Made by a program: the position numbers. A stretch of DNA of 64,000 bases from Escherichia coli. Lineage in GTDB: Bacteria; Pseudomonadota; Gammaproteobacteria; Enterobacterales; Enterobacteriaceae. The stretch lies in assembly GCF_030013205.1 (NCBI RefSeq), contig NZ_CP122648.1, one strand, 5' to 3'. Below, piece after piece: positions 36,001-39,000 of this stretch. The first letter of the stretch is position 1. Every line of letters begins with the position of its first letter.

Positions 36001-39000
36001 TGACGCCTGCGGGGTATAAAAAGTCCCGTCGCGCATCATGGCGAACAGAACGTCGCAGCGTCGTCTCGCCAGGGCGATAAGCGCCTGATTGTGTCGTTTT
36101 CCCTGACTCATTTTGCGGGTGTAGTAAGCCCTGGAGATCGGATCCCTGAGCGCGGCGAAGGCCGACAGGAACAACGCCCGTTTGAGAGCTTTATTACCCC
36201 GTCGCGAGGGATGCTCACCGCGTATTGACGAGCCGGATCGCCGAGTTACCGGCGCAAGGCCAGCATAAGCAGCGAGATGTGCGGCAGAGGCGAAGGCGCG
36301 GCAGGCGACCTCGGTGAGGAGTCTGGCTGCGGTCCTGACACCGACTCCGGGCATACTGGTCAGGACCGGGTAAAGAGGGTGAGCAAGAACTCGCTGTTCT
36401 ACCTCAAGCGCCACCTCGTCTCTTTGCTTACGCAGCGTGATGAGCTGGAGTGCCAGACGTGGCAGTACTACGGCAGCGGCATTCGTGCCGGGAACGACGA
36501 CGGTTTGTTCGGCCAGTGCCTGAGCTATGTCTGCTGCAAGGCGTTTACCCAGACGAGGCGCAAGTTTGCAGAGCTGGGCTGCCAGCTTCTTCTCACCCAG
36601 CGAAGCGAGTTTTTCTGGTGAGGGATATCGCTGGAGAAGATCGAGTACCGCCGGGTGATCAAGTCTCGGACCGAGAACGCGCTCCAGTGCCGGATGTATC
36701 TGGGTCAGAAGGCCGCGGATACGGTTGCTGGCCTGCGTTGTCTGTGCGGCAAGATCATCATCGAAGCCGCAGAGCATGGAGAGTTCGGCGATTTGCTCGT
36801 CAGCCAGTTTCAGCGTGCGTAGCGCGTGAGGCAGGGTACGGGCAGCTTCGGCAATGATGGCAGCGTCACGAGCATCAGTTTTAGCTTCACCGGCGTGTAA
36901 GTCGGCTATGCGGCGCATGGTCAGTCCAGGGAGGTATCCGACAAGGACTCCTTCTGAGCGGGCAACGGCGACAGGTAACGCACCGATGGTAGCTGGCTGA
37001 TCAACAACCAGCAGTATCTGACCATGTTGTTTCAGGTCAGATATTAGCGACCTGAGTTTGTTTTCGTCGTTGGGTAATGCTTTATCGAACAGGCGTTTAC
37101 CTGAACGATTAATGGCTACAGCGTGATGCGTATCTTTACCGACATCAACGCCGATAAAGACCTGGACGGATTCGTAATCGCTGGATTCGGTCATTCTGTC
37201 TCCCTTGTATATGGGTTAACCAGATAACCACGGGGAGCAGGTACCGGCATCCACGTTACAGACGGTCCCGGCAAAAGTGCCTGACCTGACCCCTATTAGC
37301 GGTTACCAGCGCCCCACCAGACCCGGTGACATCACCCCCCGGATCATGGACGACTGGGGGCAGTAATCATGCCGGGTCTGGCTGGCTAACACCCCATTAT
37401 AAGGGGTACGAATAAAGTAACGGGGATCTTAGGCTTGGGTATTGGTTTGTTGCATATCATGAAAGTTAAGGGGTTCTGAAATGTTGTTGAGAATAACTAC
37501 CTCAGCTACGACGAGGTACATGCTTTTGACAGAGAAATGACAGAGAAATGACTGTCTGTCGTAAAGCTGATCGTGAATGCGGAGATATTCAGAACAAGTA
37601 TGCTGTAATTAATGCTGATAACCGGTTGAAATAGCATATTAATGTAGCTGTTGTTCCTCTGACGTATCAACCCCCCTCAGAGTGATTGACATCAGATAGA
37701 AATATTAGCATCATTATTTCATCAAATAACTCTCATTAACAATGGAGATAATAAAATGAAAAAACTGTCAGTTCTTTCAGCCATCATATTATCAGTAGCA
37801 AGCGGTTCCGTGCTGGCTGACAACCATTCGTTTTCTGTCGGTTATGCACAGAGTAAAATTCAGAACTTCAAGAATATTAGAGGGGTAAACCTGCAGTACA
37901 GGTATGAATGGGACTCCCCGGTTAGTATTATGGGCAGTTTCTCCTGGATGAAAGGGGATGGTAATCAGGAATATCATTCATATGGCGATTCAATTAAAAA
38001 CCAGGTTGATGCAAAATATTATTCCTTACTGACTGGCCCCGTATGGCGCATTAACGATTATATGTCACTGTATGCGGCTGGCGGCGTGGCGCATGTTAAA
38101 GCTGATGGTAAAACAGCATGGACAAACGTTGATGGTTATTTCGCCAGAGAAAATATTTCGAAAAAATCCACATCTTTTGCTTATGCTGCCGGGGTAATGA
38201 TCAATCCGACAAGTAATATTACAATTAATGCCGGATATGAAGGAACCAGAGCAAAACTTGGCGATAATTATTCTATTAATGGATTCAATATTGGCGTGGG
38301 TTATCGCTTTTAATAAAGTAGAACGAACATAATAGCGTTCATATCTGTTTTTTTACTTAACCAAGCGGTACATATATGTACCGCTTGTCTGTAATAAATC
38401 AATACCGCCTGTAACGGTACGAATGACTATTGTCATGAACGCAATCATGTTTCTGTTGTTGCCGAACATCGTTCTGTGCAGAGGCTTTTGGTGTGCCTTC
38501 CATCAGCCAGCGTAATGATTCTCAGGCAATTTTGTATCGTTTCGGTTAACTCATACTGATGCGTCGGTGGCGGGGCATCCGAACGATCGCAGTCTGACGA
38601 TGGTTGATTTATTTTGTTGCACAGGGGCGATCACCGGGCAGGTACCGGCGGTGGGCTCTGAAGTACTGAGTCGGGTAATTGCGTCAGGTCGTGAAGTACT
38701 GACACGGGGACTGGTGGCATCTGATGAAGTACTGATCCGGGAATGACTCCGAGCTGATTCAGAGTTTGATTCTCTGTCAGCCCACGTGGTTGCTGGCCTG
38801 GCTTGTTCTTGGTTTCGGGATGGAGTTACTTTTCCTCGCCGATCGGGTTCATCCGGCATTAAGAGTAATCGTTGTCTTGGGGATGTTATTCCTGCTGATA
38901 ATGATTGCGGGCGGTATGTGCCGTTCTCTTCTGTCACGAAAGAAAACATCATGACGATCCTGTTTACGTCGCTACATTTGTGGCGGCGGATGATGCCCGT

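Follow-up and report, generated by a model that had tools for sequence, protein, structure and literature searches.

A PagC-like Ail/Lom family gene in a pheV island of Escherichia coli and its relatives at contact-dependent growth inhibition loci

The Ail/Lom gene of the pheV island

A stretch of 64,000 nucleotides of the Escherichia coli contig NZ_CP122648.1 (RefSeq assembly GCF_030013205.1), referred to here as the window, carries a gene of the Ail/Lom family of outer membrane proteins, which is located in a genomic island at the tRNA-Phe gene pheV (Table 1). The original prediction, which was made from the sequence alone, had placed an Ail/Lom gene at this position, next to an IS110-type element on a tRNA island, and this description holds in all parts. 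The open reading frame (ORF) is exactly the predicted one, and its product matches the Pfam family Ail_Lom (PF06316) with 82.8 bits (cut-off 23; E 3.5e-23), whereby residues 5-185 align to positions 7-199 of the 199 positions of the profile. The insertion sequence (IS) ISEc20 adjoins the gene on one side, and the tRNA gene and a P4-type integrase are found on the other. The 185-amino acid protein is also matched by the family OMP_b-brl (PF13505), and the identical protein WP_000736772.1 is labelled 'Ail/Lom family outer membrane beta-barrel protein' in RefSeq. The chromosome of the swine E. coli strain K_EC180 is 99.99% identical to the window over 41 kb.

A ribosome binding site (GGAG) is present approximately 8 nt upstream of the start codon, and a promoter-like sequence, TTGACA-17-CATCAT, is located at positions 37686-37714, from which it is likely that the gene is transcribed by its own sigma-70-like promoter. 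The GC content of the gene is 0.41 compared to 0.49 in the core flank. The only known RNA element in its surroundings is the tRNA. A sequence of 11 bp (ATGACAGAGAA) is repeated in tandem (approximately 2.4 copies) at positions 37527-37553, some 200 bp upstream of the gene's start codon, and is followed by an inverted GACAG/CTGTC motif.

Table 1. Features of the window at and around the Ail/Lom gene
Feature	Position	Strand	Remarks
PagC-like Ail/Lom gene	37756..38313	+	intact ORF, ATG start, 185 codons
Upstream region accompanying the Ail/Lom gene	37426..37755	+	63% A+T; 99.7% conserved in E. coli PapRG-04-4
Carrier-specific segment, ~1.13 kb	37426..38560		ISEc20 right end ~37425; homology to the E54 backbone resumes at 38561
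TraI/MobA(P) plasmid relaxase, C-terminal remnant, 44 codons	38402..38533	-	in-frame stop; pseudogene fragment directly 3' of the Ail/Lom gene
Phosphoethanolamine transferase, CptA/EptA-like, frameshifted	39089..40692	+	pseudogene here; common integrase-proximal cargo
P4-type tyrosine integrase	40789..42051	-	DNA 96% identical to the integrase region of EDL933 OI-122
tRNA-Phe (pheV, beside yqgA/speC)	42249..42324	-	island attachment site
ISEc20 (IS110 family), 1457 bp	35969..37425	-	ends taken from multi-copy boundaries
ISEc20 transposase gene	35998..37194	-	
kps capsule genes	~10485-29957		
Type II secretion system (T2SS)	21-9493		

Predicted structure of the protein

The precursor contains a predicted signal peptide (residues 1-21, cleavage site VLA/DN), and its N-terminus, MKKLSVLSAIILSVASGSVLA/DN, aligns with the signal regions of PagC and Rck. 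The mature protein would consist of 164 amino acids with a computed mass of 18.3 kDa and a computed pI of approximately 9. It ends with GVGYRF, an aromatic beta-signal, which is invariant across the family alignment. The protein is expected to be exported to the outer membrane and to adopt the topology of its family. An AlphaFold2 model, which was built from an alignment of 38 sequences, has a mean predicted local distance difference test score (pLDDT) of 88.3 and a predicted template modelling score (pTM) of 0.76, and comprises the signal helix and exactly eight strands (residues 23-35, 40-51, 56-75, 78-98, 103-123, 129-149, 155-167 and 171-184). The predicted structure is an antiparallel barrel of eight strands, as had been proposed for this gene, and has three short turns on the periplasmic side and four extracellular loops. 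Foldseek returned the Yersinia pestis protein Ail (3QRA) as the best match (E 8.7e-15; target-normalised template modelling (TM) score 0.83) and also matched E. coli OmpX (1QJ9; target-normalised TM score 0.75). A sequence search of the PDB yielded Ail with an E-value of 1.8e-23, followed by Lom and OmpX. Within the family, the column entropy is 0.5-1.1 in the strands and 2.3-2.4 at the tips of the hairpins and loops, the hypervariable tips being those of L2 (residues 66-86), L3 (113-138) and L4 (164-173).

Placement within the Ail/OmpX/PagC/Rck family

A neighbour-joining tree with 200 bootstraps was calculated from the mature region, using references drawn from databases: Rck from a Salmonella virulence plasmid, Lom from phage lambda, OmpX from E. 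coli and, by way of the PDB alignment, Ail from Y. pestis. Salmonella PagC was represented by the database entries P0121 and P0122. The window protein joins two alleles from E. coli and a metagenome (86% and 79% identical) with 100% bootstrap support, and this group nests in a clade of unnamed 'PagC-like' proteins, which stem from Leclercia, Lelliottia, Cedecea, Atlantibacter and Citrobacter, among others. Its sister group contains the E. coli protein of O island 122 (OI-122) together with proteins of Xenorhabdus and Morganella. The whole clade is separated from true PagC and Rck with 86.5% support, and PagC, Rck and the window clade are split from Ail and OmpX with 75.5%. In the mature region, the window protein shares 60% identity with the OI-122 type, 50% with PagC, 46.5% with Rck, 39% with Ail, 33% with OmpX and 32% with Lom. 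The gene belongs to an unnamed PagC-like clade of the Ail/Lom family; it represents a distinct PagC-like lineage and is not PagC sensu stricto.

Several closer assignments were tried and rejected. The best NCBIfam model is the Rck equivalog PRK15240, which is matched over its full length but with only 153.1 bits against a cut-off of 258; orthology to Rck or PagC was ruled out by the NCBIfam cut-offs and the tree. The OmpX equivalog PRK09408 gave 101.7 bits, which is likewise below its cut-off of 176. Identity to the housekeeping protein OmpX was ruled out by this score, a sequence identity of 33-37%, the tree, the accessory distribution of the gene and its different locus. It had been proposed that a position within housekeeping OmpX, combined with a non-accessory distribution, would speak against an acquired Ail/Lom gene; the tree and the distribution clearly show the opposite. 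A prophage Lom was also ruled out, as the identity is around 31%, no phage genes are located around the gene and Lom falls outside the clade. A search of 399 phage records revealed no match with at least 60% identity to the window protein.

Salmonella PagC has a precursor of the same length (185 amino acids), shares near-identical N-terminal strand motifs (FSVGYAQSK.Q.FKNIRGVN) and half of the mature residues with the window protein, and lies on the same side of the tree. In contrast, the PhoPQ-activated pagC gene of Salmonella pathogenicity island 11 (SPI-11) belongs to a separate clade and a different genomic context, and the window gene lacks a PhoP box; moreover, the L4 loop of the window protein is approximately 4 residues longer and the tips of L2 and L3 are unrelated. 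Salmonella Rck, which is encoded in the pef operon of the virulence plasmid, also consists of 185 amino acids (44.7-46.5% identity), and both proteins have plasmid-borne relatives. However, Rck belongs to a different clade and has different loops, and the window gene lies outside any pef/srg operon. Ail of Yersinia and OmpX of E. coli (3QRA and 1QJ8) are the best structural matches and share the eight-stranded barrel with protruding hairpins, but they are only 33-39% identical and form the outgroup, and the L2 and L3 hairpins of the window protein are approximately 10-15 residues longer. Unlike the window gene, which is accessory, ompX is a core gene.

Linkage of the clade to contact-dependent growth inhibition loci

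The clade alignment was scanned against one genome per species (GTDB), which yielded 74 loci. Their flanks were searched for CdiA, the toxin protein of systems for contact-dependent growth inhibition (CDI), by tblastn and ORF clustering, and Pfam confirmed cdiB as a ShlB/FhaC gene (PF03865) and cdiC as a member of the HlyC family (PF02794). At 31 of 72 species-representative loci (43%), cdi genes (cdiA, cdiB or cdiC) are located upstream of the Ail/Lom gene and on the same strand, while there is no locus with cdi genes only downstream. Among the 64 loci whose upstream sequence covers 3 kb or more, 28 are linked to CDI genes. The linked loci come from 14 genera, and their downstream contexts are of at least 12 different kinds. 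Linkage occurs scattered over deep branches of the tree, and PagC, Rck and OmpX stand outside.

A protein identical to that of the window is encoded in E. coli C5 and PapRG-04-4 directly after the gene for CdiA, the immunity gene and orphan toxin/immunity modules. In strain C5, the locus begins with cdiB, cdiC (a HlyC-type lysine acyltransferase), cdiA and cdiI, which are followed by an orphan Ntox25 module and then by the Ail/Lom gene. The same adjacency is found at three Leclercia loci (64% identity) and on the contig of the 86% identical allele. In Mixta tenebrionis (locus L076, gene at 9983-10591), the order is cdiB, cdiC, Ail/Lom gene, cdiA. Sibling loci that are free of CDI genes (L016, L064 and L067) retain the Ail/Lom gene at the same site. 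Strains C5 and STEC17-183 are 97% identical over cdiB, cdiC and the initial 8.3 kb of cdiA; beyond this stretch, the toxin, immunity and orphan genes diverge, as does the outer membrane protein allele at the tail of the locus. The 64-kb window itself contains no cdi genes, and its copy of the Ail/Lom gene appears to have become separated from a CDI locus.

Among the known systems closest to the window gene are the class IV cdiBCAI loci of the E. coli STEC_O31 type, whose CdiA is lipidated by CdiC and binds the core of lipopolysaccharide (LPS); relatives of the window gene, among them the gene for the identical protein in strain C5, form the last gene of such loci. The window differs from them in its lack of cdi genes, and the linkage of the clade extends to cdiBAI loci. 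A restriction of the linkage to cdiC-containing (class IV) loci was ruled out, since some of the linked loci consist of cdiB-cdiA without cdiC. For class IV systems it has been shown that the receptor is the phospho-heptose of the LPS core and that killing can be reconstituted with cdiBCAI alone, with no mention of Ail, OmpX or PagC (PMC8510554). Literature joining CDI with OmpX was not found, although a description beyond the literature searched is possible, and the breadth of the linkage between PagC-like genes and CDI loci appears to be barely described. The cdiBCAI-Ail/Lom locus of strain C5 is directly adjoined by an anti-phage system, a Zorya system of type I (zorABCD; locus L091, 16823-24687).

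Relation to the pagC-like genes of OI-122 and LAA

OI-122 of E. coli EDL933 is inserted at the same yqgA-pheV-integrase junction and also holds an Ail/Lom gene, the pagC-like gene Z4321. A gene of this type is part of GI-pheV of Citrobacter rodentium and of LAA (Locus of Adhesion and Autoaggregation) as well, in which it belongs to module III of the pathogenicity island (PAI) I-CL3 of Shiga toxin-producing strains of E. coli (STEC) that lack LEE, the enterocyte effacement locus. These genes and the window gene belong to the same super-clade and occupy the same chromosomal slot, at a distance of a few kb from a P4-type integrase at pheV, and alleles of the LAA type and of the window type both end the same kind of cdiB-cdiC-cdiA locus. 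The OI-122/LAA allele has a length of 191 amino acids compared to 185 for the window protein. Z4321 and the window gene share 66% DNA and 59-60% protein identity and no homology in their flanks; allelic identity with Z4321 or LAA ORF42 was ruled out on these grounds. Differences from the OI-122/LAA alleles affect 65% of the loop-tip residues and 30% of the residues elsewhere (Fisher p ~3e-5). The OI-122-type gene is present in approximately 507 genomes, the window allele in around 30. The window gene is therefore a different lineage of the same super-clade in the same island slot.

Z4321 has been used as a virulence marker (PMC8565820, PMC11537424), and in the STEC field, 'pagC, tpsA, tpsB' are grouped as LAA module III/PAI I-CL3 and their function is called uncharacterised (PMC5539235, PMC10408066). 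In OI-122 (locus L002, 11453-13506), the pagC-like gene is followed by a truncated gene for a NERD-domain protein. The LAA-type island of STEC17-183 (locus L090, 14001-16499) contains cdiB-cdiC-cdiA, the 191-amino acid allele and then an intact NERD/UvrD helicase gene. This arrangement suggests that the pagC region of OI-122 might be the remnant of an LAA-type module after loss of the CDI genes.

Distribution, mobility and selection

Of 5426 complete E. coli genomes, 5422 contain ompX and approximately 30 the window gene (at least 95% identity). Near-identical copies are carried by 11 plasmids, all of which are predicted to be conjugative, and the listed sources are pigs, cattle and sheep; among these plasmids are an IncI-gamma/K1 plasmid and a UMNK88 plasmid. 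The gene is horizontally acquired, accessory and mobile. Horizontal acquisition, which had been proposed from the location alone, is thereby borne out by the narrow distribution, the conjugative plasmids and the relaxase remnant described below. The allele is rare in E. coli, stems mainly from livestock isolates, is associated with enterotoxigenic E. coli (ETEC) of pigs and is also plasmid-borne. A literature search for this exact allele, including in porcine ETEC, found no description.

The plasmid copies share 95-96% DNA identity and 97.8-99.5% protein identity with the window gene, which corresponds to 19-20 synonymous and 1-3 non-synonymous codon differences. Compared to E. coli C5 (isolated from a cow) and PapRG-04-4 (from a baboon), there are four synonymous differences and no non-synonymous ones, and the flanks differ by 3-11%. 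The ORF is intact in all of the approximately 30 genomes and on the 11 plasmids. As the substitutions are almost all synonymous, the gene is maintained under purifying selection, which speaks against a dead relic.

Boundaries and plasmid origin of the insert

Strain E54 has the same backbone of int, phosphoethanolamine transferase, zinc-ribbon, Gp2 and hha genes at the other tRNA-Phe gene without the Ail/Lom gene, and was used as the cassette-free comparison that defines the carrier-specific segment (Table 1). The cassette that the window shares with C5 and PapRG-04-4 extends from 37422/37486 to 38803. ISEc20 occupies the exact point at which the island backbone (zinc-ribbon gene, 3' end) meets the cassette's left end, and the homology to PapRG-04-4 begins within 3-4 bp of the junction between ISEc20 and the cassette. 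The region 38561-38803 recurs in several island contexts, namely in two copies in E. coli C5, in the E54 backbone and in locus L011; it holds an annotated 'hypothetical protein' of 59 amino acids (38567-38746) with EVLxR-like repeats and may represent a recombination junction.

The relaxase remnant directly behind the Ail/Lom gene was identified by tblastn with plasmid TraI (73% identity, E 1.4e-15). On the plasmids, vapBC and the intact relaxase gene take the place of the remnant, so that the Ail/Lom gene is arranged tail-to-tail with vapBC-traI-mobA, and vapBC is flanked on either side by a copy of the relaxase gene's 3' end; these copies form direct repeats of approximately 60-130 bp (10644-10704 and 11420-11480 in L009; 9420-9551 and 12378-12509 in L003). 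The chromosomal cassette contains one copy of the repeat and no vapBC, which fits either an insertion or a loss of vapBC through recombination at these repeats. The chromosomal insert is best read as a captured plasmid fragment; because the relaxase gene is truncated, the direction of transfer was probably from plasmid to chromosome.

The original prediction also connected the gene with surface remodelling alongside the capsule. This connection was not upheld: the other carriers, which are plasmids and CDI-adjacent loci, have no kps genes nearby, and given these carriers and an insert of 1.13 kb with a relaxase remnant, the gene is not part of a capsule-linked module. Its nearness to the kps locus is a matter of geography and no evidence of a shared module.

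Neighbouring genes of the island

From right to left, the region consists of yqgA, the tRNA-Phe gene, the integrase gene, the phosphoethanolamine transferase pseudogene, the Ail/Lom gene, ISEc20 and further island genes. Beyond ISEc20, there are zinc-ribbon and inovirus-Gp2-like genes, a CP4-44-like cbtA/yeeU module, the kps locus and the T2SS genes. No attR copy of the 3' end of the tRNA gene was found when up to 3 mismatches were allowed. Two IS1 copies are located at 12381-13144 and at approximately 20580-21280 in or beside kps region-2 genes, one with an annotated frameshifted IS1 transposase, and a partial IS110 fragment is located at around 30733-30915 between kpsF and the CP4-44-like module.

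The phosphoethanolamine transferase is intact in other strains (557 amino acids); at least 445 E. coli genomes encode it, and its gene there adjoins P4-type integrases at tRNA-Phe genes. A functional pairing of the Ail/Lom protein with this enzyme was considered by analogy to the core genes ompX and opgE and rejected as incidental: the island enzyme is 29% identical to OpgE and encoded by a pseudogene here, and the transferase gene is far more widespread than the Ail/Lom gene (445 genomes compared to approximately 30). At the core locus of K-12-type genomes (rhtA-ompX-opgE; locus L006, 2501-4648), ompX adjoins opgE, which also encodes a phosphoethanolamine transferase. This arrangement mirrors the island pair, probably by coincidence, as the orientation differs and the two transferases have little identity. 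The LPS core phospho-heptose, which CptA-type enzymes modify, is also the epitope of class IV CdiA, and a link to the island transferase is speculative.

Possible functions of the Ail/Lom protein

The function that is considered somewhat more probable than its alternatives taken together, by analogy to characterised relatives, is that of a passive surface-binding protein of the PagC/Rck type, which would act in complement evasion, adhesion and/or vesicle formation. The precursor would be exported by the Sec system, and the GVGYRF beta-signal would direct its insertion as an eight-stranded barrel by the beta-barrel assembly machinery (BAM). The conserved strands would lie in the outer membrane, while the three long hypervariable hairpin and loop tips would extend beyond the LPS as the surface for interactions. 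In the pig gut, the window protein could thereby shield the envelope from complement, favour adherence or vesiculation, or both. PagC of Salmonella binds Factor H, drives the release of vesicles and confers serum resistance, and Rck mediates invasion and is able to recruit C4BP and Factor H (PMC8262969, PMC3213152). PagC of Photorhabdus provides serum resistance when it is expressed in E. coli (PMC4198210), and a pagC mutant of C. rodentium is attenuated according to work cited in PMC8565820.

Several observations weigh against this function. Phenotypes vary within the family, and only some members give serum resistance according to the Photorhabdus study (PMC4198210). The score below the Rck equivalog cut-off does not permit a transfer of function by orthology, and the loop tips, which are the candidate ligand-binding parts, are the most divergent from PagC, Rck and the OI-122 type; with unconserved loops and failed equivalog tests, the ligand is unpredictable. 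A PhoP box (up to 2 mismatches) and the SlyA consensus were sought in the upstream region and neither was found, which leaves PagC-style regulation by PhoPQ unsupported; control by PhoP/SlyA as in Salmonella pagC was dropped for this reason, although the absence of consensus sites is weak negative evidence and indirect control is possible. Finally, the clade is strongly linked to CDI loci, which suggests that its primary role may be directed from bacterium to bacterium rather than at the host.

A primary role in CDI is the main alternative, and it is possible but clearly the less likely of the two. The clade would then comprise genes that are accessory to cdiB(C)AI loci or form their tail, and the window copy would be a detached module that is kept for the same benefit, e.g., resistance to the CDI systems of competitors. 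The protein might shield or alter the LPS core or the outer membrane surface against incoming CdiA, give rise to decoy vesicles or promote the cell-cell contact on which CDI depends. In favour of such a role, nearly half of the loci are linked to CDI genes, which lie upstream and on the same strand across many genera and downstream contexts, the Mixta gene is located inside the operon between cdiC and cdiA, and the identical protein ends complete cdiBCAI loci in C5 and PapRG-04-4, as the LAA-type allele does in STEC17-183. The scatter of the linked state over deep branches, the position of the gene in the 3' part of the locus, which is polymorphic, its retention where CDI genes are missing (L016, L064, L067, OI-122 and the window) and the purifying selection on the gene point in the same direction. 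However, linkage does not equal function: a gap of around 400 bp usually separates the gene from the CDI genes, the gene has its own promoter-like site, and more than half of the loci, as well as the window, are devoid of CDI genes. CDI loci might also insert preferentially beside the gene, or both could be cargo at the same island end, and the reconstitution of class IV killing with cdiBCAI alone did not involve such a gene (PMC8510554). The broader proposal, in which the PagC-like clade is an unrecognised accessory CDI component across Enterobacterales whose real job is inter-bacterial, e.g., protection of the producer or of a bystander from CdiA directed at the LPS core or at outer membrane proteins, and whose detached copies are 'orphan' defence or fitness modules, is a rather unlikely one and ranks slightly lower still.

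It is improbable that the gene is an expressed but neutral hitch-hiker, or a silent relic, on a recombined plasmid fragment. The insert is tiny, bordered by an IS element and accompanied by a dead piece of a relaxase gene, the neighbouring phosphoethanolamine transferase is already a pseudogene, and the low GC content may point to silencing by H-NS. However, the ORF has remained intact in all carriers with a ratio of synonymous to non-synonymous differences of approximately 20 to 1-3, and the protein is identical in strains from pig, cow and baboon despite the divergence of the flanks. Housekeeping OmpX and prophage Lom belong to the same Pfam family and are its commonest members in E. coli; with an OmpX score below the cut-off, low identities, a separate ompX in nearly every genome and a position of both proteins outside the clade, the chance that the window gene is one of them is close to nil. 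A surface-binding protein of the PagC/Rck type remains the favoured interpretation.

Significance

Taken alone, the gene encodes one more Ail/Lom protein of modest interest. It represents a distinct, livestock-associated PagC-like lineage, which is exchanged between conjugative plasmids and the chromosomal islands of oedema-disease strains and pig ETEC, and it fills the slot in which enterohaemorrhagic E. coli (EHEC) and LEE-negative STEC carry the 'pagC' virulence marker. Its history is legible from the plasmid fragment, the relaxase stub and the neighbouring IS110 element. If the linkage to CDI loci is functional, these loci would gain an additional component, and the 'pagC-like' markers of OI-122 and LAA that are used for STEC risk typing may report competition between bacteria instead of interaction with the host.

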